From the NCBI GenBank assembly GCA_043823825.1, contig JBDRTU010000026.1, forward strand, positions 43 to 64,042: a DNA stretch of 64,000 nt, read 5' to 3'. The position numbers and the translations under genes are program-made. The notes beneath the pieces were generated by a model. That model saw nothing but the letters and a program-made list of their open reading frames with translations. It did no database searches and was not told the DNA's origin. This stretch comes from Patescibacteria group bacterium (lineage in GTDB: Bacteria; Patescibacteriota; Patescibacteriia; Veblenbacterales; UBA10138). Positions 1,103 to 64,000 of this stretch are shown piece by piece; the first letter of the stretch is position 1, and the number at the start of each line of letters is the position of its first letter.

Positions 1103-2200
1103 TTAAATATGTAAAAACACAAATACTTTACTTTGCTTGCGCTCCTGCTCTAACCACTGATCAAAGTTGAAAATTTCAAATAGAATATGACTAGCTGCTA
1201 CCTGATTATTATATTGCTCGGCTGACGGTACCTCTTCACGCTTAATAAGGTGCCAACCAAAACTAGTTCTCACAGGCTCGCTCACCTCGCCTACTTCTAA
1301 CTGTTCTAGGCTGTCTTCAAATTCTGGTACCATGGTACCCCAACTAAAAACTCCCAAATAGCCCCCGGCCGAGGCGTTACTTATGTCTTGAGAATATTTA
1401 CTAGCTGCTTCGGCAAAAGAAAGTTCACCCTTAGTAATTTCAGTTAAAGCTTGCTTAGCTTTTTCCCGCGTTGTGGTATTGGCTGATTCATTTTGAGTAA
1501 ACCAATTAGTTACTTGCTGGCGAAGTAAATAAGGCACAATTATCTTTTGCTGAAATTGATTTATATCCAAATTATAATTTTCACGTAAAAAAGATGATAA
1601 CTCTTCTTTAGAACCAAATTCCTGAATTAATGAATTAACTTCAGCTGTTATAACCTCATTGCTAATCATTACCTGATTACGCTTGGTAAAATTTTTTACA
1701 ATCTCTTTATGAATCATTTGTTCTAACACTAATCTTTCTACCGAAGGACGATCAAATACACTCTCGGCATTATTTTCCTGTTGTTCCTTAAGATAAAACA
1801 ATTTTAAGGTTTCTACATCGGTGGTAAAATCTTTTATGGAAAGTAATCTACCGTCAACATAAGCAACTGGCCAAGGAAAAATATTTACCAAACTGGGATT
1901 TTTAAGATCTAATCTAAAACGATAAAAAGAAAAAACAAACGACAAAAACATTAGTATTAACACTAATACTAATAGTAATATCTTTTGTCCTAAAAATCTC
2001 CCAGGCGTCTTTGCTGCTGGTACTATTGATTTAGGTACAGGCTTAACTGGTGTTTCGGTTGCAGATGATTTAGGATCTTCCCAAATAAACCTTTTAACAT
2101 TTTTAGCTTTAAAAAGGTTATTAAATTTATATTTACCAATTTCCTCTAAAATAGTGGCGCGCAATTCTGGTTTGTCTTTTTTTTGTTTATCGGCTTTCAT
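1103..2200 (-). CDS. Membrane-anchored PrsA/SurA-like foldase with a parvulin-type PPIase domain
   Basis: N-terminal TM helix, a SurA-N-like region, then parvulin motifs GGYLGVFSWGTMVPEFE and FGWHLIK, with ASHILF located C-terminal to them. Confidence 0.6.
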   Translation of the reverse strand: MKADKQKKDKPELRATILEEIGKYKFNNLFKAKNVKRFIWEDPKSSATETPVKPVPKSIVPAAKTPGRFLGQKILLLVLVLILMFLSFVFSFYRFRLDLKNPSLVNIFPWPVAYVDGRLLSIKDFTTDVETLKLFYLKEQQENNAESVFDRPSVERLVLEQMIHKEIVKNFTKRNQVMISNEVITAEVNSLIQEFGSKEELSSFLRENYNLDINQFQQKIIVPYLLRQQVTNWFTQNESANTTTREKAKQALTEITKGELSFAEAASKYSQDISNASAGGYLGVFSWGTMVPEFEDSLEQLEVGEVSEPVRTSFGWHLIKREEVPSAEQYNNQVAASHILFEIFNFDQWLEQERKQSKVFVFLHI

Positions 2201-2217
2201 AGCTAACTATAAATTTT

Positions 2218-2607
2218 TTATAATTTAAAAAAGTGATTCCACCATTTTTGCCAGTTATTGGCCTGATAACCAGCCCCTCCTGATGTTTGCTCGCCTAAAA
2301 CACTGCTCTCGCCGTTTTGTGGGATAATCACAACTTGCTCTCCTGGTTTTTGTAAATTCAAACGCAAACGAGCCTCTCGTTCCCTAAATTCATTAGTTTG
2401 GAAATAAGAGATTAAATTACTTAACTCTTTATTCTTTTGCTCAAAACTATTAATTTTGGCTTGCAAACTATTTATCTCCTGCGTTAACTCAACTTTGCGC
2501 ATTTGATTTTTAACTATAGCCACTACAATAATAATCATGGCGACTATGGCTATAATTTGAAACAATCTGGACGTGATGATAGTCCAAAAACGGGCTTGGG
2601 AATGCAT
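2218..2607 (-). CDS. FtsB/DivIC-family septum formation initiator
   Basis: Single TM helix, coiled coil, and the motif REARLRLNLQKPGEQVV that resembles the FtsB ARERLG.VKPGE signature. Confidence 0.5.
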   Translation of the reverse strand: MHSQARFWTIITSRLFQIIAIVAMIIIVVAIVKNQMRKVELTQEINSLQAKINSFEQKNKELSNLISYFQTNEFREREARLRLNLQKPGEQVVIIPQNGESSVLGEQTSGGAGYQANNWQKWWNHFFKL

Positions 2608-2786
2608 AATGCTCTTAGTATAACATGTTTTTTAATAATTACATTTACCACATACCTGTGAGGGAGCAGTGGTTTACTTTAATAAATAAGGAATCTATAG
2701 TATACTTACCATGGCTATGCGAAGTAAAACACGACGAATAATTTGGATTATCTTCTCAATCATTATAGTATTAAGCCTAATACTTT

Positions 2787-4601
2787 TTACTGTAGCGCCT
2801 TAGTTCGGCTACTAGTGGGACGACTTAGTAAACTAAGATAAGCTTCGGTTGGTATTTGCACACTTCCTTGGGCACGCATTCGTTTCTTGCCCTTTTTTTG
2901 TTTTTCCAATAATTTGCGTTTACGCGTAACATCACCACCATAAAGTTTCGCTGTTACATCTTTTCTCATTGCCGATAATCGTTCAGCCGCAATTATCTTT
3001 CCGCCTAAAGCCGCCTGAATTTTCACTTCAAACATTTGACGCGGTATAATCTCCTTTAACTTAGTAACAATGCTACGCGCTTTGTGGTAAGCCTCACTGG
3101 TATATACAATAGTAGCTAATGATTCAACAATTTCTTCTGCCACTAAGATATCTAGCCGTTTAATCTGGCAGGGCCGGTATTCTAAAAAATCGTAATTAAG
3201 CGAGGCATAACCCTGACTAACGCTTTTTAAACGATCATAAAAATCAAAAAGAATTGAAGACAATGGTATTTGATAATGCAAAATTGCTCTTTCTGGCACG
3301 CCGCCAGGACCCAATAAATAATCAGTTGCTTTCCACTCAGCATGAGATTCTTGAGCTAGTGTCATTACTTTACCCAAATATTGATTAGGAGCCACAATAT
3401 CTAAGAGCATAATTGGTTCAGTTACTTGGCTGATAGTTGATTCATTTGGTAATTCTAATGCGCTTTTTATTATTTTCTCTACGCCACTTGATGTCTGTAC
3501 ACGATAAGCTACTGAGGGCGAGGTAATTACCAATTCTAATTCATATTCCCTCTCTAACCGCTCTTTAGTAATTTCCAAATGTAAAAGACCTAAAAAACCC
3601 ACACGAAAACCAAAACCTAAAGCTGGTGAATGCTCTGGTTCAAACGACAAACTAGCATCATTTAATTTTAATTTGTCTAAGCCCTCTCTTAACTCGGTAG
3701 CCTCATCGCCTTCCCTGGGATAAAACCCGGCAAAAACCATAGGTTTAACTTGTTGATAACCAGAAAGTGGCATATCTTGTTCGCTGGACACAAAGGTGTC
3801 ACCCACCCGAACCTTATTAATATTTTTTAAACCAGTTATCAGATAGCCAATTTGCCCAGCCACTAGAGTTGATTGGGGCTTTAATTGCGGCTGATAAATA
3901 CCGACCTCTAATACTTCTCCATTAATCTTTCCGCCCGGCAGCCAATAGCGGTCTCCTTTTTTTATTTCACCAGCTACTAATCTTATAGATGCAACTACTC
4001 CGCGCCATTCATCGTAACGCGAATCAAAAATTAAGGCCTGTAATTTATTACTGCTTGGTTTAGGCGCAGGAATGTCGCGCACCAAACGATTAAGCAACTC
4101 CGGCACAATTTTTCCGCTTTTTGCCGAAATTGAAAGAATCTCCTTATCTGATATTTTTAATAATGATGCTAATTCCTGCTTAGTTGCTTCAATATTAGCA
4201 TTAGGTAAATCAATTTTATTAATCACTGGAATAATCACTAAATTCTGACTTTGCGCTAAGTGCAAATTGGCGACTGTTTGAGCCTGAATACCCTGGGAAG
4301 CGTCTACTAGTAAAATAACGCCTTCAACGCAGGCCAATGAACGCGATACCTCATAGGAAAAATCTACATGACCAGGAGTATCAATTAAATTTAATAAATA
4401 ACCATTGTAACTCATAGTTACAGGCGCCAGTTTAATAGTAATACCCCGCTCCCGCTCTAACTCCATTTGGTCTAGTACTTGCTCCCTCATTGCACGCTGG
4501 GGAACAGTCTTAGTTAACTCTAATAAACGATCGGCTAAAGTTGACTTACCATGATCAATATGCGCAATAATGCAGAAGTTACGAATTTTTGATAGTTCCA
4601 T
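2787..4601 (-). CDS. lepA: Elongation factor 4 (LepA)
   Basis: G-domain motifs AHIDHGKST and DTPGHVDF, with LepA-specific C-terminal region. Confidence 0.95.
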   Translation of the reverse strand: MELSKIRNFCIIAHIDHGKSTLADRLLELTKTVPQRAMREQVLDQMELERERGITIKLAPVTMSYNGYLLNLIDTPGHVDFSYEVSRSLACVEGVILLVDASQGIQAQTVANLHLAQSQNLVIIPVINKIDLPNANIEATKQELASLLKISDKEILSISAKSGKIVPELLNRLVRDIPAPKPSSNKLQALIFDSRYDEWRGVVASIRLVAGEIKKGDRYWLPGGKINGEVLEVGIYQPQLKPQSTLVAGQIGYLITGLKNINKVRVGDTFVSSEQDMPLSGYQQVKPMVFAGFYPREGDEATELREGLDKLKLNDASLSFEPEHSPALGFGFRVGFLGLLHLEITKERLEREYELELVITSPSVAYRVQTSSGVEKIIKSALELPNESTISQVTEPIMLLDIVAPNQYLGKVMTLAQESHAEWKATDYLLGPGGVPERAILHYQIPLSSILFDFYDRLKSVSQGYASLNYDFLEYRPCQIKRLDILVAEEIVESLATIVYTSEAYHKARSIVTKLKEIIPRQMFEVKIQAALGGKIIAAERLSAMRKDVTAKLYGGDVTRKRKLLEKQKKGKKRMRAQGSVQIPTEAYLSLLSRPTSSRTKALQ

Positions 4602-4695
4602 AAATTAACTTGATAATTCATGTCTCGCCCCGTAGTATCCCGCAATAGCGGGTCTACTACTGGGGTAATTAATATGCACGATGATGCAAAAATTT

Positions 4696-6297
4696 CTAAT
4701 TTTGGCTAAATCCATATTGTTTAATTTTAGCCCAGGCCAGATGAAGCCACTGGTTAACAAAAACGACTTCTGGCAACTTTAATACCCAAGCAAACAACCA
4801 ATAGGTTAGCACGCCTAGCATACCAGCTCCTACCCCTTGAATAAAAATGCCTAAGAAAGTGTACATATCAACTAATGGCGCTATTACTTGTAAAGCTCCA
4901 TAAGTGATCAAACCTGCTGGTACTGCCGCTAACAATATTCTCATACTGGCCTGAATAACACTTTTGGACTGTAGACTTCCTAAACGCTCTCCCAAAATAA
5001 AAATCAGAACTGAGAAATTAATAATACCAGCGACCACATAAGCTAGAGCTAGACCTAACAAACCAAAAGGTTTAATTAAAATTATTGAAAGAATAATATT
5101 TATTACTAAAGCGACGCTACTGACAATTACTGGCGTCCTGGTGTCTTGAAGTGCATAAAAAGCACGAGCAATTAGAGGAAGTAAACTTTCAGCAATTAAA
5201 GATAAAGCTAAAAATCCAAGCACTTGAGCTGTCATAAAAGTATCGTGCCAGTCAAAAGCGCCTGCCCCCAACACTACCCGAACAATCTGCGCTCGCAATA
5301 TTAAAAATAAAATACTTAAAGGAATAACAAAAAATAATACCCGGCGAATACTATCACTTAGATGACTGACTAATTCGCTGGGTTTGTTATTAGCCCAAGC
5401 TTCACTAAATAAAGGAAAAGCAGCAATGGCCAGCGACACACCAAAAACATTAATGGGAAAACTTTGTAAATTTAAGGCTAGGGTAAACGACGCCAAACTA
5501 CCAGCCACCAAAGTAGAGGCAAAAATAGTTAGCACAATTTGATTAAAAGAATGAACGGCCAACCCAAAAGTGCGGGGCAAAATTAGTTTAACTATTTTTT
5601 TTACTGACTGATGAAAAATATTAAATTTTAAATGCCAGCGCCAACCTAGTTTTAAAACAGTTGGTAACTGTATAAGCATGTGCATGATACTTCCTAGAAA
5701 AACACCAAAACCCAGTCCCACAGCACCAGCTGAAGGAACGATTAGAATTATCCCCAAAATAATTCCCAAATTGTACATCACTGGAGCTAAGCTATAAAAC
5801 AGGAATCTTCTAAATGATTGTAAAATTCCGCTGAGCACATTACTAGCGCCGAAAAACACTATTGCCAACATCATGATGCGGCTCAGTTTAATAGTAAGCT
5901 CAAGCTTGTCACCACTAAAACCAGGGGCAATCATCGGCACTAAGCTAGAAGCAAAAATTATTCCCAGTACTGCTAAAATCAAAAGTAACACCACTAAGGC
6001 ATTAAATACTGTAGTAGCCACTTTCCAGGCTTCTTCTAAACTTTTTTTGTTTTTCAATTCAATAAAAACAGGAATAAAAGCTGAAGCTAAACCCCCTAAT
6101 ACTAAAATATTAAAAATAAAATCTGGAATCTTGAAGGCGGCAAAATAGGCATCTAGAGTATCCCCTGCCCCAAAAGTAGTAGCTAATAAACGATCACGAA
6201 CTAAACCTAATACACGTGAGCCAATAGCAAAAATAGCGATGACTAAAGCACCGCTAGTTACCTTTGCACTTAAACTAAAGTTTTTCTCGTCAGACAT
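4696..6297 (-). CDS. murJ: MurJ/MviN-family lipid II (or polysaccharide) flippase
   Basis: N-terminal MviN signature GSRVLGLVRDRLLATTFGAGDTLDAYFAAFKIPDF and about 14 TM helices. It is adjacent to a polysaccharide cluster, so a Wzx-like role cannot be excluded. Confidence 0.85.
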   Translation of the reverse strand: MSDEKNFSLSAKVTSGALVIAIFAIGSRVLGLVRDRLLATTFGAGDTLDAYFAAFKIPDFIFNILVLGGLASAFIPVFIELKNKKSLEEAWKVATTVFNALVVLLLILAVLGIIFASSLVPMIAPGFSGDKLELTIKLSRIMMLAIVFFGASNVLSGILQSFRRFLFYSLAPVMYNLGIILGIILIVPSAGAVGLGFGVFLGSIMHMLIQLPTVLKLGWRWHLKFNIFHQSVKKIVKLILPRTFGLAVHSFNQIVLTIFASTLVAGSLASFTLALNLQSFPINVFGVSLAIAAFPLFSEAWANNKPSELVSHLSDSIRRVLFFVIPLSILFLILRAQIVRVVLGAGAFDWHDTFMTAQVLGFLALSLIAESLLPLIARAFYALQDTRTPVIVSSVALVINIILSIILIKPFGLLGLALAYVVAGIINFSVLIFILGERLGSLQSKSVIQASMRILLAAVPAGLITYGALQVIAPLVDMYTFLGIFIQGVGAGMLGVLTYWLFAWVLKLPEVVFVNQWLHLAWAKIKQYGFSQN

Positions 6298-14036: not shown

Positions 14037-14115
14037 AAGTTACATTATACCATTTATGGTCATTATTTCTAATCAATTAACCTTAGTCTGATTTGTAATT
14101 TTGAGTACAAAAAAA

Positions 14116-14565
14116 GCTAAGTAGACCAATAAGCCGAATTCTGTCTGACCCCGCCGTGTGGCGGGGGAAGCGATTATCTATCTGGGCCGCCTCTCACGAG
14201 GCGAGCTCTAGCTACCAACCCGTCCGTCTCGCCAATTTCTTGGCGGACGAGACCTACTTGGTATTGCACCGGGTAGAGTTTGCCTAGCCCCCGACGTCAC
14301 CGTCGGGGCTGGTGGGCTCTTACATTTTACGCTGAAGCGTTTTATTCCGCCCGTGGCGGACCCACCGTTTCACCTCTTACCTCGCTCTGCCAGATGGCTG
14401 AGCGGGCGAGTCTATTTTCTGTTGCACTTGTCCTACGACCCACTTACGCGGATCAGCGGCTGCTGTTAGCAGTTACCCTCCGCCTATGCGGCGGACACAT
14501 GGTGTTCGGACTTTCCTCCCCCATCTAATAATTAGATGAGAGCAATCGCATAAGTCTACTTAGCT
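14116..14565 (-). ncRNA. rnpB: RNase P RNA (bacterial type A)
   Basis: The reverse complement contains GGGAGGAAAGTCCGAACAC (P4 5' strand) and ACAGAATTCGGCTTAT (P4 3' strand, matching ACAGAACCCGGCTTAT), plus GGTAAGAGGTGAAACGGTGGG and GTGCAACAGAAA. The P1 stem is agctaagtagac/gtctacttagct at the two ends. This GC-rich island overlaps a spurious 82-aa plus-strand ORF in the track. Confidence 0.8.
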
Positions 14566-14744
14566 ATGACATTATACAACACTGAATAATTTTGTCAACG
14601 TTAAAAATCAACTAATAACTATGGGTATTATTCGCGTGAATAATACCTAAGTGCGTAAAACAGCTACTCATTTGTCTTTATACCTATACTAGTACAGTAG
14701 TATAGCTGACAAAAAAGCCTGATTAAGATTATATTAATCTATTA

Positions 14745-15146
14745 TTACTGATCTAAAACTTGGTTCAATAGAATATCAGCTCTTTTGTTCTGCCCACGCA
14801 AAACATGGTGATAGCTAATCTTTTTAAAACTCTGGCTTAAATTCCAAACCTTCACAAACAAACTGGCTAGAGCTTTATCCTTAACTTTATATTCCCTGTT
14901 CAGCTGTCGCGCGACTAGCTCGCTGTCTAAATAACACTTTACTTCTTCGGCGCCTAATTTCTTCACCTCTTCTAAACCAGTAATTAAGGCTAGATACTCT
15001 GCCTCGTTGTTGGTTTTTTCACCTAAATATCTGCCTTGCTCTTTTATAACTTTGCCAGTTTGATCTTCAATCACATAACCAATGGCTGCTGGCCCAGGAT
15101 TCCCCCGCGACCCACCATCAGTTCTTAAAATTACTGATTTACTCAT
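14745..15146 (-). CDS. rnhA: Ribonuclease HI-like protein
   Basis: RNase H fold motifs DGGSRGNPGP and TNNEAEYLAL with a C-terminal Asp. It overlaps recJ by 8 nt. Confidence 0.75.
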   Translation of the reverse strand: MSKSVILRTDGGSRGNPGPAAIGYVIEDQTGKVIKEQGRYLGEKTNNEAEYLALITGLEEVKKLGAEEVKCYLDSELVARQLNREYKVKDKALASLFVKVWNLSQSFKKISYHHVLRGQNKRADILLNQVLDQ

Positions 15147-23646: not shown

Positions 23647-24396
23647 TCAAATCAAGTCCCCCTGCAGTTTAGGGTCTACCCCAACTAGTGCCGGTTTTAA
23701 AAAGGCTTTAAGTAATAATAATAAGGCTTGCTCCTCCCAAATTCCCCGCGAGCGTAAATAAAAAAATTCTTCAGGAGAAAGTTGACCAATAGTAACGCCG
23801 TGCGAGGCTTTAACATTATTAGTTAAAATTTCCATACGAGGATCGGAGGTTGCCTTACTCTTCTCCCCAACTAGCACGGCTTTATCAGAAAGATAAGTGT
23901 CTGTACCGTGCGCCTCCCTTCCTACTTTTAGGGTACACGCAAAAGCTCCAGTTGCTTCTTGTTGTAAAATGCGACGCGAAATAATACGGCCAACCGTATT
24001 AACTGCCTGGTGATTTATTAAACACTCAACTTTGCCGTGTCCATTATTTTGATCCACTAGCGCTAGTTGCAAATGGCAGTCAGACCTCTCGCCAATTAAA
24101 TCAACATTAAATTTAATAGTATAATTTTTCTGCTGCCTGCCAAGTAAAGTTATAGTTAAACGCGCATTCTTTTCCACCCGACAATTTATTTTGGAACTTG
24201 GGCAAACACCATGCAAAATTAGATGAACTCCCGCGCCAGCTTGAAGTTGTAATTCCAACTTCTGTAGCCCTGTCTGCTTGGGCACCAGAATTTCGGCCAC
24301 TGAATTCTTTTCCACTAACAAATTGCGGCTCTGATTCCCCGGCGCCAACTGGACCACTGTTCGCCCACTAATCTTTCCCAACCTTTCCATGTTCAT
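23647..24396 (-). CDS. sufD: Fe-S assembly protein SufD (short form)
   Basis: C-terminal SufB/D signature SHGVTIGQLSPEEFFYLRSRGI. Confidence 0.75.
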   Translation of the reverse strand: MNMERLGKISGRTVVQLAPGNQSRNLLVEKNSVAEILVPKQTGLQKLELQLQAGAGVHLILHGVCPSSKINCRVEKNARLTITLLGRQQKNYTIKFNVDLIGERSDCHLQLALVDQNNGHGKVECLINHQAVNTVGRIISRRILQQEATGAFACTLKVGREAHGTDTYLSDKAVLVGEKSKATSDPRMEILTNNVKASHGVTIGQLSPEEFFYLRSRGIWEEQALLLLLKAFLKPALVGVDPKLQGDLI

Positions 24397-24457
24397 AATA
24401 TTAACTAGTTCTTATTTGTTAATTTAGTTAAATAGTTAAATAGCAACAAACACCAAA

Positions 24458-25870
24458 TTAGCCAACTGATCCTTCCATCTCTAACTGAATTAAACGATTT
24501 AGCTCAAGTGCGTATTCCATAGGCAATTCTTTAGCGATTGGCTCAATAAAACCAGAAACAATCAAGGAAGTAGCTTCTAATTCTGATAAACCACGCGAGC
24601 GCAAATAAAATAATTGTTCATCCCCTACTTTTGAAACTGTGGCCTCGTGCTCAATTTTTGCATCTCGAGTTTTAATGTCATTAGTGGGATAAGTATCAGA
24701 TCGTGATTCTGCGTCCATAAGCAAAGCATCGCATCTTACTTTAGCTTGAGAATTTTTTGCTTGTGGCGCTACGTGCAATAAACCGCGATAACTAGTGCGT
24801 CCTCCCCCACGGGCTATTGATTTAGAAACAATATTGGAGCTGGTATTAGGGGCTAAATGTATAGCCTTTGCGCCAGAATCTTGATGCTGGCGTTGCCCGG
24901 CATAAGATAGACTTAAAATATCAGCCTTGGAGCCAGCGCCCTTCATAAATACTGATGGATACTTCATAGTGACCTTACTACCAAAATTACCATCTACCCA
25001 TTCCACTATGGCTCCCTCTTCAGCAACTACTCGTTTGGTAACCAGATTATAAACATCGTTAGACCAATTCTGTATAGTAGTGTAGCGTACGCGAGAATAT
25101 GGTTTGGCGATAATCTCCACTACAGCGCAGTGAAGTGAATCAACAGAATAAACCGGTGCTGTGCATCCCTCAACATAATTCACATAACTCCCTTCTTCAG
25201 CCACAATTAAAGTCCTTTCAAACTGACCCATATTTTGGGCATTGAGCCTAAAGTATGCTTGTAAAGGAACCGTTACCTGCACCCCGGCTGGCACATAAAC
25301 AAAACTGCCGCCCGACCACGCTGCCGTGTTAAGCGCCGCAAACTTATTGTCGTTTAAAGGAATTACGGTGCCAAAATATTTTTTTACAATCTCTGGATGC
25401 TCTCGTAATCCTGAATCCATATCCATAAATATTACGCCTTGTTTTTTCCACTCTTCTTTTAGATTGTGATAAACAGCTTCGGAATCGTACTGCGCCCCCA
25501 CACCTGATAAAAATTTAGCCTCGGCCTGGCGAATACCTAGTTTTTCAAATGTTTTTTTAATGGTGTCAGGCACTTTGTCCCAAGACGCTGCTTGCCTTTC
25601 TGACGACTTTAAATAATAAGTAATTGCTTGATAATTAATTTGCGATATGCGAGCGCCCCAAGTTGGCACCTGTCGCTTATCAAACGCTTGCAATGCTTTA
25701 AGCCGCAGCTCTCTCATCCAAGCAGATTCCCCCTTAATTGATGATATTTCCTCAACTACTTTTTTGGAAAGGCCTGGTGGAATAGAATAAACCGGCTTGA
25801 TATCATCATAAAAACCAAACCGATAAGAATTCCCTGATTTCAGCTGTGTATCTTGTAATAATTTTGCCAT
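24458..25870 (-). CDS. sufB: Fe-S assembly protein SufB
   Basis: Full-length SufB with the C-terminal motif EHEATVSKVGDEQLFYLRSRGL. Confidence 0.95.
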   Translation of the reverse strand: MAKLLQDTQLKSGNSYRFGFYDDIKPVYSIPPGLSKKVVEEISSIKGESAWMRELRLKALQAFDKRQVPTWGARISQINYQAITYYLKSSERQAASWDKVPDTIKKTFEKLGIRQAEAKFLSGVGAQYDSEAVYHNLKEEWKKQGVIFMDMDSGLREHPEIVKKYFGTVIPLNDNKFAALNTAAWSGGSFVYVPAGVQVTVPLQAYFRLNAQNMGQFERTLIVAEEGSYVNYVEGCTAPVYSVDSLHCAVVEIIAKPYSRVRYTTIQNWSNDVYNLVTKRVVAEEGAIVEWVDGNFGSKVTMKYPSVFMKGAGSKADILSLSYAGQRQHQDSGAKAIHLAPNTSSNIVSKSIARGGGRTSYRGLLHVAPQAKNSQAKVRCDALLMDAESRSDTYPTNDIKTRDAKIEHEATVSKVGDEQLFYLRSRGLSELEATSLIVSGFIEPIAKELPMEYALELNRLIQLEMEGSVG

Positions 25871-25873
25871 CTT

Positions 25874-25890
25874 CTTATTCGCGCGAATTA
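25874..25890. repeat. Palindrome ttattcgcgcgaattag in the sufC-sufB intergenic spacer
   Basis: Core 12-bp perfect palindrome ATTCGCGCGAAT, identical to the copy at 63686-63697. Confidence 0.55.
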
Positions 25891-25918
25891 GAAAGTAGTT
25901 CTATAGTTAAATTAAGGG

Positions 25919-26668
25919 CTACGCGACTAATTGCTTATAACCTGTCCGTTCAACGAGATCAACTAGTTCCTCCCCTGCTGACTTAACTATTTTCCCGTTT
26001 ACTAAAACATGAACGTGAGTCGGCTTTAGATAATACAACAACCGCTGGTAATGTGTTATTACTAATACACTAGTCTTCGGACCCACAAACTCTTTGACTG
26101 TCTTAGCCACTAATTTTAAAGCATCAATGTCTAAGCCAGAGTCAGTTTCGTCTAAAATTGCTACTTTCGGCTTTAGGATTAGGAGTTGTAAAATTTCTAA
26201 GCGCTTCTTTTCTCCACCAGAAAAACTATCATTAACACTACGGCTGAAAAAATCTGGATTGAGTTTTAGACGTTTCCCTGCTTGGTTGAGTAGTATTTCA
26301 ACATCGGATGCGGATAACGGTTTTAGTTTTTCTGCAGTACGCCTAGCGTTTAAAGTACTTAATAAAAAATCTCTGACACTTAAACCCGGAATCGCCACTG
26401 GATACTGAAATGCCAAAAACAAACCTCGCTGCGCCCGCTCCTCTGCCTTAAGCACTAACACATCCCTCCCCGCTAATAAAGCCTGCCCACCTGCAATTTC
26501 ATAGTTCGGATGTCCAGCTAAAGCCGCGGCTAAAGTAGATTTACCGCTGCCATTTGGCCCCATCAGCGCATGCACTTCTCCAGCACCTATTGATAAAGAT
26601 AGGTCGCGGATTATAACCTTGCCTTCAACTTTTATTTGCAAATTTTTTATCTCTAATAAATTTGACAT
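25919..26668 (-). CDS. sufC: Fe-S assembly ATPase SufC
   Basis: ABC ATPase with Walker A GPNGSGKST, the signature LSGGEKKR and Walker B ILDETDSGLD. Confidence 0.95.
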   Translation of the reverse strand: MSNLLEIKNLQIKVEGKVIIRDLSLSIGAGEVHALMGPNGSGKSTLAAALAGHPNYEIAGGQALLAGRDVLVLKAEERAQRGLFLAFQYPVAIPGLSVRDFLLSTLNARRTAEKLKPLSASDVEILLNQAGKRLKLNPDFFSRSVNDSFSGGEKKRLEILQLLILKPKVAILDETDSGLDIDALKLVAKTVKEFVGPKTSVLVITHYQRLLYYLKPTHVHVLVNGKIVKSAGEELVDLVERTGYKQLVA

Positions 26669-26676
26669 TGGGCAAT

Positions 26677-27282
26677 TTATTTTAACCTACTAGCCACCTC
26701 ATCCCAGTTAACAACATTCCACCAAGCCTTAATATAATCAGGTCTCTTATTCTGATATTTTAAATAATAAGCGTGTTCCCAAACATCTAGTACTAAGAGT
26801 GGGGTTAAACCCTGCGTAATAGGGCTATCTTGATTAGGTGTAGTGATAACGCTAAGTTTCTTTGAACTATCGCTAACGACCCAGACCCAGCCACTACCAA
26901 AAAGTTTAGTAGCTGCGTCGGTAAAATTATCACGCAACTTTTTAAACTCTCCAAAATTTTTATTTAGCATATCTGCTAGCTCGCCGCTTGGCTCCACTCC
27001 TCCACCAGCCGGCGGATTCATACTAGTCCAAAAGAGTGAATGATTATAATGACCACCGCCATTATTTATTACGGCGCCTCGCACTGCTTCAGGAACTTGA
27101 GCTAAATTACCCAACAGCTCTTCTAGAGACTTGTCTTTAAGTTCTGGTACTTTCTCAAGAGCTTCATTTAATTTATTAACATAAGTTTGATGGTGTTTAG
27201 AATGGTGAATTTCCATAGTTCCTTTATCAATAAACGGCTCTAAAGCATCATAACTGTATAGTAGTTTTGGTAAAGAAAACAT
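26677..27282 (-). CDS. sodA: Fe/Mn superoxide dismutase
   Basis: [25 protein letters not shown] and the C-terminal DVWEHAYY motif. Confidence 0.9.
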
Positions 27283-27292
27283 AATTTTTAAA

Positions 27293-27715
27293 TTAAGGAT
27301 TAGTAGTTAGATTAGATTTTTTATAAAGATCAGCTAAGCTGTAACTGTCCAAGATAGAATAAATTTTATGATGAATAGCGCACCATCCTTGTTTCATTAA
27401 ACATAATTTTTCACGAATACAATTTGCCCGGTCACTAGTGCACTTAGTGGGCGCTAAATCGCCTTCCAAAATTGTTAGCACTTCGACTAATTTAATTTGG
27501 TAGGCTGGACGAGCTAAAATGTAACCACCACCAGCACCCTCTTTACTAACGATAATATTTGCCCGCTTTAAAGTGGCGGCCAGCCGTTCAATGTATTTAA
27601 GCGGCAATTTTTTTTGACGCGATATTTCCTTAAGTGAAATTAATCGTTTTGGCCGCTGGACCAGGGCTTCTAAGAAACTAAGTCCATAATCGCCTTTTGT
27701 TGATAATCCAAACAT
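27293..27715 (-). CDS. Rrf2-family transcriptional regulator (IscR/SufR-like)
   Basis: N-terminal wHTH motif [13 protein letters not shown] and three Cys in [14 protein letters not shown], typical of Fe-S-binding Rrf2 proteins. It is the first gene of the sod-suf operon. Confidence 0.85.
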
Positions 27716-60807: not shown

Positions 60808-62064
60808 TTAGATCGTTGGATTAACAACTCTGCCCAAAAATAGGATATTTCCCGTGTCTTTTTCTTGAATTATAAATATAAATGGATGGTCTGCCCTAAA
60901 GACATTTCTCGGCATAGCACTTCTTACCATCCCCACAGCAGTTGCAGCAGCTGCCTCTGTTCCTTTCTCATCAACTTTAATATATGCTTGATGAATTACA
61001 AAATCAATCCAAATTTTTTCTGCTGTAGTCATTCCAGAAAAATCAGCATTTGCTGAAAAAGCTGTTGGCATTCCTAACGCACCCAAAGTTTCATTCATGA
61101 AATATTTAGTATCAAAATCAAATTTAGGAAGTGATATTGAATCCAATTTGGTTTCTTTCATCTGAGACTTGTATTCATTAAGTTTTTCTGCTGTGAGATT
61201 AGACCCTATTGTATCAAGATTATTAGTTGGTAATAATACCAGCATTGAAATTTCATCACCTTTGTATGGTAATTCCAAAATTTGTAAATCTTCTGTATCG
61301 GAATAGTTAAACCTCGCCTTATCTGGATTCATATTCATCATGGCGGTTTTTACAATATTATCAGGAGTTATCTTAAAATCTCCTTCGCGAGTATCAGCCT
61401 TATCAAATTCCCATTCCCAAATCCCTTTAAAATAAATTGCATTAGTTAAAACAAGTCTTGTCATCGCATTAAGAAATCCTGCAGGAATTAAATCTTTAAT
61501 CTTATTATTTGTTTGTTCTCCTATGAAGCTATTGATAGTCTGCCTTGATTTTTCAGTTTCTTTAACATAATCCAAATTTGCTGCTTTTCCACCATAATAT
61601 TTTTCAACCCTGCTTGTATAACCTTCGAGGAAAGGATAATCTTGTTGAACCCATAAAGCATTCCCGGTTCTAAATTCGTAATCCTTAGCTCCCTTGTTAA
61701 TTTTATTATAAATTGCAGCAAAATTTGATCTTAAAATATCACTTTCTGGGAAATGATAAACTGATTTCATTTCATCCGCTGTTTGTCCTTTTGCACCTTC
61801 ATAAGTCATTGCTAGAGCAGCAGAAATGCTATATGGAGAATAAAAAACATTTCCATTTTCAGACTTATTTAGTTCGGAATATAAATCAAAAGCAAATTTG
61901 TTATTTGCATTAGCTACGTCTTGTATTCCTTGCTGTGTCGAACCAGTATCATTTGCTGGAGGGGGTTGATTCGGCTGATATGGGAAAAGAAACAATACTG
62001 CTGCAGTTGCTACGCCTGCGAACAGAATAATCATCAACGAAATTAATAAAAATTTTTTGGTCAT
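60808..62064 (-). CDS. Serpin-family serine protease inhibitor with an N-terminal membrane anchor or signal
   Basis: N-terminal hydrophobic helix. Serpin core motifs NVFYSPYSISAALAMTYEGAKG, and the C-terminal FRADHPFIFIIQEKDTGNILFLGRVVNP, which includes the reactive-centre-loop hinge and s5B signature. Confidence 0.85.
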   Translation of the reverse strand: MTKKFLLISLMIILFAGVATAAVLFLFPYQPNQPPPANDTGSTQQGIQDVANANNKFAFDLYSELNKSENGNVFYSPYSISAALAMTYEGAKGQTADEMKSVYHFPESDILRSNFAAIYNKINKGAKDYEFRTGNALWVQQDYPFLEGYTSRVEKYYGGKAANLDYVKETEKSRQTINSFIGEQTNNKIKDLIPAGFLNAMTRLVLTNAIYFKGIWEWEFDKADTREGDFKITPDNIVKTAMMNMNPDKARFNYSDTEDLQILELPYKGDEISMLVLLPTNNLDTIGSNLTAEKLNEYKSQMKETKLDSISLPKFDFDTKYFMNETLGALGMPTAFSANADFSGMTTAEKIWIDFVIHQAYIKVDEKGTEAAAATAVGMVRSAMPRNVFRADHPFIFIIQEKDTGNILFLGRVVNPTI

Positions 62065-62297
62065 ATTTTTTGTTCTTAATAAATTAGTTAATTTTTTTAT
62101 ACTAACTTACTTATAGTCTACCACCCAGATACTTTTTGCAAAACTATCTCATTCAACTAATCAACGCTAACCTCAAAAACTTATGCGATTTTCTCTTTTT
62201 CCTGATATTCTTTTGATAATTCTTGATTATTATATTGTTCAGGATTTTCAAGCATAATATTAAAATTAAATTAGTAAAATTTAAATATCATCATTCT

Positions 62298-62315
62298 CTC
62301 ATTCGCTCGAATGAG
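62298..62315. repeat. Palindrome ctcattcg-ct-cgaatgag immediately downstream of the arsR-like gene
   Basis: Perfect 8-bp arms. The reverse-complement variant occurs at 62617-62632, and related palindromes at 25874 and 63684. Confidence 0.6.
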
Positions 62316-62322
62316 GTCTAAA

Positions 62323-62589
62323 TCAAATATAACTGATAACAGATTTAGATACTCGCGACAGCTCCGAAGATAAGGAATAAAATACTAGTTTACTTTTTTG
62401 CTCTGATTCTAAAATATCAGCACCTTTTAAGACAGTAAGATGTTTAGAGGTGGCTTTAAATGATAGTTTGATGGCGTCAGCTATATCACCTACTGGTGCT
62501 GGCTGATGAGATTTTAGATATTTGATAATAGCCAGACGGCGTTTATTAGCTAAAGCTTTTAGATTTCTTTCTAACTCCTTCATAAACAT
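62323..62589 (-). CDS. ArsR/SmtB-family transcriptional regulator
   Basis: 88 aa with a wHTH motif: LKALANKRRLAIIKYL ... VGDIADAIKLSFKATSKHLTVLKGADIL. Confidence 0.75.
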   Translation of the reverse strand: MFMKELERNLKALANKRRLAIIKYLKSHQPAPVGDIADAIKLSFKATSKHLTVLKGADILESEQKSKLVFYSLSSELSRVSKSVISYI

Positions 62590-62616
62590 ATTATAGCACC
62601 ATTATTATCATTCAAA

Positions 62617-62632
62617 CATTCGAGCGAATGAG
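62617..62632. promoter_or_regulatory. Palindromic candidate operator cattcg-ag-cgaatg upstream of the arsR-like gene
   Basis: Located 28 nt upstream of the arsR start codon. It is an inverted copy of the palindrome at 62298-62315. Confidence 0.4.
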
Positions 62633-62759
62633 GGCAAGATAAGGGGGAGGTGGGAGTATGGAGTATGATGGGGAAAGATGATCTGCTGCAAAGATGATTT
62701 TTTTGTTTAGGCAGCCAAAATTACTGAATTTATTAAGTAATAAATTCATGAATTAATTT

Positions 62760-62798
62760 ATGCCTGCCCGCCTTGGGCGGGAATTAATTACTGAATTT
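62760..62798. repeat. 39-nt direct repeat, copy A
   Basis: atgcctgcccgccttgggcgggaattaattactgaattt. The last 19 nt are identical to copy B at 63733-63771. It overlaps the 3' end of a minus-strand ORF. Confidence 0.55.
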
Positions 62799-62809
62799 CC
62801 TTGATAATT

Positions 62810-63045
62810 TCATTTTAGCGCAAAACCACCCAGCAACACTAGGTAGCTGGTGGAAATGAAGCTCCATAGCCTTATGGCCATGGTATCCTTCATTTCTTCG
62901 GCGGAATCCGCCGTAGCACCCTCCTTTACTTTTCGAGCTACGGAGGATCCACCCCGCATTCATCCACGGGCTTACGTCCGTGGTCTTCATGCGAAGGCGG
63001 ATAAAAAAGACCCGCCAGAGGTCCTTGGGACATAGCGGGTTAGGT
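62810..63045. other. GC-rich, hairpin-dense segment that is a candidate structured RNA. The overlapping short ORFs on both strands are probably artefacts.
   Basis: Consecutive stems: ccagc/gctgg, gaaatgaag/cttcatttc (9 bp), cggcgg-att-ccgccg and ccacgg-N8-ccgtgg. The two overlapping ORFs (68 and 61 aa) have RNA-like odd composition. Confidence 0.3.
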
Positions 63046-63533
63046 TAACGAGGGGGATTTAGCGTGTTGGCTATTGGCTTTTCGAGATTTACCTCGAAGG
63101 CTTCTGCAAGAGCTAACAAGTCTCTTCCCCACGGATTAGTCTTCCTGGGTGGATAAAGATGAGGAGACAACCCAGGACGATAAATCTGTTTACTCTGAGC
63201 CACTAATTCGGCTTCTATCTCTCTGCGTTGCCTTATAATTTCCTCTATAATAAACTTAATGGCTTCCCTCTGAAAGAGGTCGCAATTCTTGGCCAGTTGT
63301 TTGTATATAGTCAGACAATCTTCAAATGAAGAAGAGTTATCAATCGGTGCTTTATCTCCATAATCAAAACCAGTCGCATAGGGAATAAGATAATTAGTAA
63401 CCGACGTAAGGTGATCTAGAAACTCTCCCATGGGACCCATGCCGCCTAACGGTGGACAGGGAATTCTACGTAGAGCATATACAGTCATGGCTATGGCCTT
63501 ATCTATGTATAAAGATAAAAAATTCATCCTCAC
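63045..63533 (-). CDS. Hypothetical protein
   Basis: 162-aa ORF with no recognised family. It lies between the two 39-nt direct repeats. Confidence 0.4.
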   Translation of the reverse strand: MRMNFLSLYIDKAIAMTVYALRRIPCPPLGGMGPMGEFLDHLTSVTNYLIPYATGFDYGDKAPIDNSSSFEDCLTIYKQLAKNCDLFQREAIKFIIEEIIRQRREIEAELVAQSKQIYRPGLSPHLYPPRKTNPWGRDLLALAEAFEVNLEKPIANTLNPPR

Positions 63534-63683
63534 TCCTTTTATTAGTTGTCAAGGTAATTATTTTATTTTCATTTCATCTTAGATTAAAAAAGATATATTT
63601 GTCAATACTTATAAATAAAAACTCGCTCCTCTAGCCAAATTCGCCAGCGGAGTTATTTTATTTTTTAATCTTCAACTATTCTC

Positions 63684-63700
63684 CTATTCGCGCGAATTAG
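63684..63700. repeat. Palindrome ctattcgcgcgaattag upstream of ORF 63045..63533
   Basis: Same 17-nt sequence as at 25874-25890. Confidence 0.55.
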
Positions 63701-63732
63701 AGCCGGGTTAGTTATGCATAATACTTAGAATT

Positions 63733-63771
63733 GATGCCCGTCCGTCTCTGGAGGGAATTAATTACTGAATT
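63733..63771. repeat. 39-nt direct repeat, copy B
   Basis: atgcccgtccgtctctggagggaattaattactgaattt. It overlaps the 3' end of ORF 63762..63992. Confidence 0.55.
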
Positions 63772-63992
63772 TTTTCATTAACTGCTTTGATATACCTACA
63801 ATAATCACAATCCTCCCTTGACTTAGGCAACACCTCTGCCTCCAAACACTTTATGGCATCTCTTATAGCCCCCTCCACCCAACTATCATCCCCTTTATAA
63901 GGAATTATCTTAATATCAAACTCTAGCTTGCCATCAAAGGCCTCCTTATCAGTTTTGCCATTACAATACACAAAATAACCGATCTTGGACAC
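63762..63992 (-). CDS. Hypothetical small Cys-containing protein (may be truncated by the window edge)
   Basis: 76 aa with CDYC and other Cys. The start lies 8 nt from the window end. Confidence 0.3.
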   Translation of the reverse strand: MSKIGYFVYCNGKTDKEAFDGKLEFDIKIIPYKGDDSWVEGAIRDAIKCLEAEVLPKSREDCDYCRYIKAVNEKIQ

Positions 63993-64000
63993 TTTAAAGC

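Follow-up and report, generated by a model that had tools for sequence, protein, structure and literature searches.

We analysed a stretch of 64,000 nucleotides, hereafter the window, from a Patescibacteria group bacterium (GTDB lineage Bacteria; Patescibacteriota; Patescibacteriia; Veblenbacterales; UBA10138), which covers positions 43 to 64,042 of the forward strand of contig JBDRTU010000026.1 in assembly GCA_043823825.1. Near its end, on the minus strand, lies a gene for a small ArsR-like protein that has a copy of the palindrome ATTCGNNCGAAT on either side. A preliminary description, made from the sequence, had remarked on these two copies and on two distant ones, and had suggested that they are either operator sites of one regulator, possibly the ArsR-like protein itself, or a terminator family similar to repetitive extragenic palindromic (REP) elements. 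The elements on which the following analysis rests are these (window coordinates; centres of the cores are given as they stand in the window, and PWM stands for the score of the position weight matrix described below):

25868-25897, minus strand: putative operator in the sufC-sufB spacer, PWM 26.9; core 25877-25888, an exact match with centre CG
62292-62321, minus strand: putative 3' operator of the arsR-like gene, in gene orientation TTAGACCTC-ATTCG-AG-CGAAT-GAGAGAATG, PWM 27.0; core 62301-62312, an exact match with centre CT
62323-62583, minus strand: arsR-like gene, 86 aa (MKELERNLKALANKRR...), of the ArsR/SmtB family according to profiles, the AlphaFold2 (AF2) model and Foldseek
62590-62598, minus strand: extended -10 box TGcTATAAT, read from the sequence, which ends 6 nt before the ATG at 62583
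62609-62638, minus strand: putative 5' operator of the arsR-like gene, in gene orientation CTTGCCCTC-ATTCG-CT-CGAAT-GTTTGAATG, PWM 25.7; core 62618-62629, an exact match with centre AG
63677-63706, minus strand: putative distal operator, CCGGCTCTA-ATTCG-CG-CGAAT-AGGAGAATA, PWM 36.1; core 63686-63697, an exact match with centre CG, upstream of a 160-aa gene

The window has four exact matches to ATTCGNNCGAAT, against a mean of 0.02 in dinucleotide-preserving shuffles, none of which (out of 100) reached four. Even if ~89% of the window is coding, all four lie outside the called open reading frames (ORFs), which has a probability of ~1.6e-4. Chance is excluded as the source of these cores, and the palindromes of the preliminary description are real and intergenic. 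In the 15-mer 'tattcgcgcgaatta', which had been taken for a perfect palindrome, symmetry is confined to the 12-bp core and the flanking T/T is unpaired. The two copies that flank the gene also have common flanking sequence in direct orientation (repeat D4). Looser copies, with up to two mismatches, show no enrichment (22 versus 25.6 expected). The only near copy of the core in the window, ATTCGCGTGAAT at 14630, was rejected as a member of the family: with the PWM it scores 11.2, short of the threshold, and its arms bear no relation to those of the operators. It is part of a 24-nt palindrome at 14624-14647, GGTATTATTC-GCGT-GAATAATACC, which holds the core with one mismatch and has an RNase H-like gene (14745-15146, minus strand) on one side and the RNase P RNA, whose 5' end is at 14562, on the other.

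The ORF of the arsR-like gene, when called mechanically (62323-62589, minus strand), begins one ATG earlier than the gene listed above. The true start is the second ATG (62583): the family alignment begins there (MKELE...) and the promoter geometry agrees with it. The first ATG abuts the -10 box and thus cannot lie on a transcript made from that promoter. Since the box ends 6 nt before the second ATG, the arsR-like mRNA is probably leaderless, as far as can be read from the sequence. This box is not called by a scan for TTGACA-N16-18-TATAAT because it has no -35 match. The preliminary description had put the upstream palindrome 28 nt from the start of the gene; with the start at the second ATG, the distance is 34 nt, which is the same as the modal distance in the family. 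At the other end of the gene, the 3' core begins 10 nt past the TGA stop codon.

We then compared 80 loci of GTDB representative genomes, each with a gene for a relative of the protein (1.18 Mb in all; individual loci are cited by L numbers). They hold 200 exact cores, for ~1-2 expected by chance according to an estimate from base composition. When we allowed at most one mismatch in the core and considered the 76 genes with complete flanks, 66 had the motif on both sides, 8 only at the 5' side, 2 only at the 3' side, and none lacked it. Hence, the motif is present at 76 out of 76 orthologues, in dozens of genomes from many lineages of Patescibacteria, and in several of the eight genes with only a 5' copy the 3' copy is split by an insert. 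The conserved unit is larger than the 12-17 bp proposed initially. It is a directional 14-2-14 inverted repeat of ~30 bp, with consensus aTTCTCTA-ATTCG-yr-CGAAT-wrGnGAATA. Both copies are mildly asymmetric and the arm facing downstream is the better conserved one. The 30-bp PWM (score ≥18) identifies 206 sites, versus 0 in controls made of reversed sequences. Up to 150 bp from the gene, there are 334 sites per 100 kb; the density then falls to 19, 14, 8, 3, and ~1 beyond 3 kb, which leaves ~10 distal sites per Mb. In the window, the best match to the family consensus is the site at 63677-63706.

The position of the sites relative to the promoter is also conserved. In 62 of the 74 genes, the interval from the core to the ATG contains a -10 box that matches at five or more of the six positions, and the modal spacing across orthologues is 22 nt from the core to the -10 box (TGnTATAAT) and 6 nt from the latter to the ATG. 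Only 4 out of 77 genes have a motif resembling a Shine-Dalgarno sequence. The 5' site spans about -26 to -55 of what is apparently the promoter of a leaderless mRNA. The 3' copy, present in 68 of the 76 genes, has its core over the stop codon or the last codons in 33 of these 68, so that its left arm is written in the final codons (...ATT CTC TAA TTCG). The two copies of a gene have the same orientation in all 54 scorable cases. Likewise, 41 of the 48 dispersed sites in a tandem context are aligned with the direction of the flanking genes (p = 6e-7).

These observations bear on the possibility that the sites are REP-like elements or terminator hairpins, acting as RNA or as single-stranded DNA. 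Each site could form a short hairpin, the pairing of the arms is somewhat above what column composition predicts, and some loci (L004, L011, L012, L023, L062, L070) have long, perfectly symmetric arms of lineage-specific sequence. However, the bases of the arms are conserved as specific letters (C in 80% at -4, C in 76% at -2, and GAATA), beyond what mere pairing would require, and the elements are asymmetric and directional. The 5' copy is upstream of the -10 box, hence outside the arsR transcript, and the sites are not followed by a T/U tract. A terminator scan of 61900-63800 found nothing at the three sites it covers (the site at 25877 is outside the scanned stretch). We found no match to Rfam 15 at the sites, either with gathering thresholds over the whole window or with E ≤ 1 between 62100 and 64000. 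REPs and bacterial interspersed mosaic elements (BIMEs) resemble our sites in being short palindromes that recur in intergenic DNA, occasionally in arrays (as in L155, see below). They differ in that the sites described here are of low copy number, tightly linked to one transcription factor gene, conserved at specific bases, and oriented with transcription; no linked RAYT/Y1 transposase (REP-associated tyrosine transposase) was noticed near them, though no systematic search for one was made. The conservation of specific bases, the orientation, and the lack of predicted terminators at the three scanned sites led us to reject the REP-like terminator family, and we regard a hairpin-based function as extremely improbable.

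The sequence of the sites follows that of the adjacent protein. Proteins with a KATSK recognition helix mostly have centres CG or CT/AG, those with RSTSK have TA, and those with KSTSR have TG/CA or the ATTCGTGAGAAT variant. The centre class is common to both sites of a gene in 40 out of 66 cases, for 18.9 ± 3.1 expected and a maximum of 31 in 5,000 shuffles. The arms of the two sites of one gene are also more alike (7.5 and 7.0 of 10 positions) than those of different loci (5.8 and 5.1; 0 of 5,000 permutations). Lineages with other outer arms, of the GCCGAT and CCAGG types, show matching changes in the helix.

This co-variation is relevant for a second alternative, in which the element is bound by another factor or is itself a module of the RNA polymerase promoter, with the downstream arm (TGgTAGAAT or GAGAAT) serving as an extended -10 box and the arsR-like gene being just its most conserved target. 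Several traits fit this scenario. The hexamers of the right arm (TAGAAT, GAGAAT, GCGAAT) resemble a -10 box, and in L037, L042, and L063 the ATG comes 6 nt past TAGAAT, which is a leaderless geometry. In addition, the sites follow the direction of transcription and their neighbours are heterogeneous housekeeping genes. It is harder to reconcile with a density of sites that is ~300-fold higher beside the arsR-like gene, with the lack of any fully flanked gene without a site, and with centres and arms that vary with the recognition helix of the adjacent protein. Furthermore, a distinct TGnTATAAT box follows the core at 22 nt in most loci, and a perfect inverted core of ATTCG and CGAAT is not a known polymerase element. 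We thus find this alternative very unlikely.

The protein encoded between the two copies matches the Pfam profiles HTH_5 (36.6 bits, cut-off 22, E = 4e-9) and HTH_20 (37 bits, cut-off 27, E = 3e-9). Among the NCBIfam models, it reaches only the generic ArsR/SmtB subfamily model NF033788 (66.2 bits, cut-off 55), and scores under each of the cut-offs of the BigR, CmtR, SdpR, and PagR models. The AF2 model of the monomer reaches a predicted local distance difference test (pLDDT) score of 95. Its topology is the canonical one, alpha1-alpha2-alpha3-alpha4-beta1-beta2-alpha5, with helices that span residues 2-13, 16-28, 33-39, 44-56, and 79-87 and strands that span 60-65 and 68-73. The best Foldseek matches of this model are CzrA, HlyU, NolR, SmtB, CadC, and PagR, with template modelling (TM) scores of 0.75-0.85. 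By sequence, the nearest solved relatives are HlyU (3jth, E = 8e-13), Lmo1102, and NolR. The predicted structure thus identifies the protein as having a bona fide ArsR/SmtB fold. It presumably acts as a dimer, and the symmetry of the operator is consistent with this. The recognition helix, LSFKATSKHL, is nearly invariant in the family alignment. There are more than 1,000 relatives with 57-78% identity, those that are named being almost all from lineages of Patescibacteria, and an identical protein is recorded from a metagenome-assembled genome of a 'Patescibacteria group bacterium'.

We searched the protein family for the ligand sets of metal and thiol sensors (alpha3N, alpha5, alpha5c, and BigR/SqrR types) and found none of them. 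The protein of the window and 68 of 77 relatives have no cysteine, the recognition helix (SKHL) holds the sole invariant histidine, ligands do not cluster in alpha5, and D, E, H, and C together average 1.3 among the last 16 residues. Since cysteines are lacking, the histidine is restricted to the recognition helix, and alpha5 lacks a ligand cluster, the protein does not belong to any of the described types of metal or thiol sensors.

Taken together, these results suggest that the palindromes are, quite probably, the core of a ~30-bp operator recognised by the ArsR/SmtB-family protein that is encoded between two of its copies. The bracketing of the gene, the fixed distance to the -10 box, the centres and arms that track the recognition helix, and the match between the sites of one gene all support the first suggestion of the preliminary description. 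The classical binding sites of ArsR/SmtB repressors are 12-2-12 inverted repeats, one or two of them, that overlap the promoters of these repressors (PMC8790569). By analogy with the 12-2-12 sites of SmtB and CzrA, we infer that two dimers of the protein would occupy the four ATTC/GAAT half-sites. When bound to the 5' copy, it would cover about -26 to -55 of the extended -10 promoter, and so repress its own gene. We read the effect as repression, even if a core centred near -40 would also suit a class II activator. Further copies in front of other genes would place neighbouring and dispersed genes under the same protein, through occlusion of promoters or roadblocks within operons. In the window, two places would be affected in this way: the spacer between sufC and sufB, and the sequence ahead of a 160-aa gene that has no annotation (63045-63527). 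In the former, which is only 48 nt long, the core ends 6 nt before the ATG of sufB, within an operon of the order Rrf2-sodA-sufC-sufB-sufD according to Pfam. In the latter, the site is 153 nt upstream of the gene. The interval contains a sigma-70-like promoter (TTGACA-18-TAAGAT, 63605-63576, minus strand), and simple occlusion of the promoter is therefore not evident there. Our best reading, given the sequences, is that the protein is a sensor-less autorepressor of the ArsR family whose operator also precedes neighbouring and dispersed genes.

Several points weigh against this reading. The evidence for the pairing of protein and operator is comparative throughout. The sequences are phylogenetically related, so the tests of co-variation and the permutations overstate independence, and local duplication or gene conversion could make the flanking copies alike. 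The lack of sensor residues leaves no evident route for the response to a signal. In the window, the flanking pair of sites (C...G flanks and CT/AG centres) is unlike the distal pair (A/T flanks and CG centre), and the CG-centred sites at 25877 and 63686 might be those of a paralogue encoded in another part of the genome; no other paralogue of the protein was found in the 64 kb of the window. The site upstream of sufB is not conserved: in L040 and L071, sufB has no site and sufC and sufB are contiguous. The Fe-S operon, which had been proposed as part of a small regulon, is therefore not a conserved target, and an Fe-S regulon would be specific to this window. Finally, the dispersed targets lack functional coherence.

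The composition of the putative regulon illustrates this last point. The genes behind 3' or nearby operators are diverse; the recurrent ones encode MsrA (three cases), MsrB, GIY-YIG (three), Ser_hydrolase (three), and NUDIX, and UvrA, UvrC, MPG, MgsA, NifU, and SufB are also found near operators in the arsR-centred sample. To have a sample chosen independently of the regulator gene, metagenome contigs were scanned for CTNATTCGNNCGAATNNNNGAAT, which gave at least 120 loci. The 120 loci examined contain 162 PWM sites, of which 43 adjoin an arsR-like ORF and 119 do not, 89 of the latter being far enough from the ends of contigs to reveal an adjacent regulator gene. The neighbours of the dispersed sites are heterogeneous and include Mur ligases, MiaA, PIF1, aminoacyl-tRNA synthetases, PGK, topoisomerase, TGT, and MPG. 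We had considered a regulon for oxidative damage and repair, which MsrA, MsrB, GIY-YIG, UvrA, UvrC, MPG, NUDIX, SufB, and NifU seem to suggest in the arsR-centred sample. It is not replicated in the metagenome sample, and we rejected it as lineage-local at best. The sites are intergenic: those called 'coding' make up at most 16%, versus 87% of coding sequence overall, and most of these calls are artefacts of ORF calling: the 58 sites placed in coding sequence by a crude ORF caller mostly fall in antisense ORFs over short arsR genes or in over-extended starts.

The methionine sulfoxide reductases deserve a separate mention. In L039, L029, L015, and L012, msrA or msrB is directly behind the 3' operator, and both genes flank the regulator gene in L015 (89-1850) and L046 (9589-11392). 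MsrA is encoded within ±10 kb of the regulator in 8 out of 80 loci, and the association is not seen at the dispersed sites.

The remaining difficulties concern the 3' copy. The gene that follows it (n = 68) is co-directional within 150 nt in 41 cases, co-directional but farther in 11, and convergent in 13, whereas in 3 there is nothing within 1.5 kb. The convergent arrangement is robust in L045, L074, and L073, which nevertheless keep the copy, and in the window the next gene, a serpin, is 237 nt away. Since the 3' copy is kept where neighbours are convergent or distant, control of the neighbour cannot be its sole role. Moreover, a clear -10 box follows only 24 of 46 3' copies. These observations also count against our reading, as does the lack of support for phased looping between the two operators: the spacing between the 5' and 3' centres (286-407 bp) shows no helical phasing (p = 0.21; p = 1 with unique distances), so looping of this kind was discarded.

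One may thus ask if the 3' copy is a second auto-operator, which acts with the 5' copy through looping over ~300 bp or by blocking read-through or causing termination, the dispersed copies being secondary. This would account for the near-universality of the copy, its fusion to the stop codon whatever gene comes next, its persistence beside convergent or distant genes, and the presence of a clear -10 box downstream of it in only 24 of 46 cases. The copy between sufC and sufB, which has the same gene-operator-gene order within an operon, also fits. On the other hand, the spacing of the two copies has no 10-11-bp periodicity, a co-directional gene follows within 150 nt in most cases, at distances resembling those between the 5' copy and arsR, and to our knowledge looping has no precedent in the ArsR family. 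Auxiliary operators are well known elsewhere. In the lac (O1/O2) and gal (OE/OI) systems, a second cognate operator is found downstream of the promoter, in or after the first gene and a few hundred bp away. The arrangement at the arsR-like gene resembles them in this respect. It differs in that lac and gal involve LacI/GalR proteins and phased looping, with no phasing detectable here, and in that here the downstream site matches the upstream one in strength and in most cases has a further gene behind it. We regard a dedicated auto-operator as possible, if on the unlikely side. We favour instead a mixed role for the 3' copy within the operator-regulator system outlined above: we infer that it controls the next gene, or acts as a roadblock before it, where there is one, and that it is inherited with the regulator gene. 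It is possible that it also cooperates with the 5' site.

Some of the sites are interrupted in a peculiar way. In ~3% of the operators, a GC-rich hairpin of 19-60 nt, which usually starts with CCTGyCC and ends with GGrGG(G), splits the core at a fixed junction (ATTCGnnCG^insert^AAT), whichever way the palindrome is oriented. An orthologous pair shows both states: the site is intact in L011 (3997-4017) and has a 19-nt insert, CCTGTCCGCCTTTGGCGGA, in L016 (10267-10305), without target duplication. Further inserts were found in L007, L056, L100, L117, L013, L022/L113, L179, L043, L077, and L158. In the window, hairpins of this type are found outside the operators at 62763-62782 and 63737-63756, each followed by AATTAATTACTGAATTT (repeat D2).

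The locus L155 has an unusual concentration of sites, with ten operators in the same orientation within ~4 kb (1990-5830). Three of them stand in tandem ahead of a possible structured RNA (~2220-2385) that ends in a terminator-like hairpin, and others flank small unannotated ORFs and what by eye appears to be a tRNA gene (~2920-2995, minus strand). Several copies have an identical longer upstream flank (taaCCCCTCATTTCTATTCTCTAATTCG) and are accompanied by apparent repeated fragments of gene 3' ends, which points to local duplication.

Such inserts and arrays, with their duplicated flanks, could indicate that the palindromes are the boundaries of a mobile or recombining unit, in which the arsR-like gene is a passenger, or a miniature palindromic element that spreads, without being primarily regulatory. 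The bracketing of the gene itself, the several paralogous bracketed copies in some genomes (L005, L007, L011, L059), and the absence in L040 and L071 of the spacer that carries the sufC-sufB copy are compatible with this. However, the distances to -10 boxes and start codons are fixed, the element always points with transcription, and neither target-site duplications nor junctions of such a unit were seen. We noticed no recurrent recombinase or transposase beside the element, though no systematic search for one was made. A collection of 2.9 million viral contigs contained only 9 single matches, which is about the chance level by a rough estimate, and we rejected an association with phages or mobile elements. 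A mobile unit that is not primarily regulatory is very improbable in our view. A bolder variant of the operator-regulator scenario would retain both mobility and regulation. There, operator-arsR-operator would be a portable self-regulating cassette, whose directional module, the operator with its -10-like arm, spreads to intergenic and intra-operon positions in the streamlined genomes of Patescibacteria and brings arbitrary genes under a sensor-less repressor, with the GC hairpins inserted at CG^AAT as a dedicated off-switch of individual operators. We consider this variant unlikely and mention it tentatively.

It is useful to compare the putative system with other members of the ArsR/SmtB family. 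SmtB, CzrA, and AztR are similar in their fold (Foldseek TM of 0.8 to CzrA and SmtB) and in the HTH_5 and NF033788 signatures of the protein. Their operators are also imperfect inverted repeats with a 2-bp centre and inner and outer half-sites, placed over the -35 region, and there are one or two copies of them, with the regulator gene itself being a target (PMC8790569), as appears to be the case here. The differences are substantial. The arms of our sites are of 14 nt, with ATTCG/GAATA rather than TGAACA/AATA, and the protein, of only 86 aa, has no alpha5 or alpha3N metal ligands and is Cys-free in most members. The second operator lies where the regulator gene ends, in many cases over its stop codon, the mRNA is predicted to be leaderless, and there is no linked gene for metal resistance.

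The closest solved relatives, in sequence and fold, are HlyU of Vibrio, NolR of Sinorhizobium, PagR of B. anthracis, and Lmo1102. These are small dimeric winged helix-turn-helix proteins that are not known to have the canonical metal sites and that bind palindromic or AT-rich operators. Their identity to our protein is only about 25-32% and none is from Patescibacteria. HlyU is an activator or anti-silencer, and the operators of these proteins differ from the one described here, that of NolR being (A/T)TTAG-N9-A(T/A). We know of none among them with a conserved pair of operators bracketing its own gene. Our search of the literature, whose searchable part has incomplete coverage, retrieved no description of the motif or of an ArsR regulon in the candidate phyla radiation (CPR).

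Other features of the window were noted along the way. Directly downstream of the regulator and its operators there is a full-length serpin gene (60808-62064, minus strand; Pfam Serpin, 2e-115), whose product starts with a hydrophobic segment. In the upstream direction, two genes away and on the strand of the regulator, is a gene for a Cas4-like PD-(D/E)XK nuclease (63762-64000, minus strand, continuing in L001:1-480), assigned on the basis of PDDEXK_1 (4.5e-10), with the cas4 model below its cut-off. Five other loci (L010, L053, L062, L070, and L076) have homologues at most 10 kb from the arsR-like gene. The GC-rich region between the 160-aa gene and the arsR promoter (62780-63045) forms very stable folds on either strand (z of -6.3 for the minus and -5.8 for the plus strand, none of 200 shuffles being as stable). 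It has no match in Rfam and, among the comparison loci, shows only weak partial similarity to L007 (3377-3505, E = 3e-5). The region might correspond to a structured RNA that has yet to be described.

Two more observations concern regions far from the regulator. The RNase P RNA (14114-14562, minus strand) is of bacterial class A (198 bits), which agrees with the bacterial origin of the window. It has 449 nt for a model of 367 positions and thus contains sizeable insertions. The suf cluster (23647-27715, minus strand) includes a gene for an Fe/Mn superoxide dismutase in the order Rrf2 regulator, sodA, sufC, sufB, sufD. In L040 and L071, sodA is instead several kb away from sufB.

Few Patescibacteria are known in culture; their genomes are small, with few regulators, and little is known of how they control transcription. 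If our interpretation is correct, the arsR-like gene and its flanking sites would be one of the first testable pairs of transcription factor and operator for these bacteria. A protein of 86 aa and a site of ~30 bp can be synthesised and tested directly, without culturing the organisms, and the variants of the recognition helix that are paired with variants of the centre and arms would make a ready-made specificity code. Both the conserved location of a second operator at the regulator's own stop codon and the apparent absence of a sensor site are unusual for bacterial autoregulators. The circuit might serve to keep a constant level of the protein, to insulate tightly packed genes from each other, or to convey a signal through a partner. 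The leaderless geometry and the directional operator may also be of use in the annotation of promoters in the CPR.

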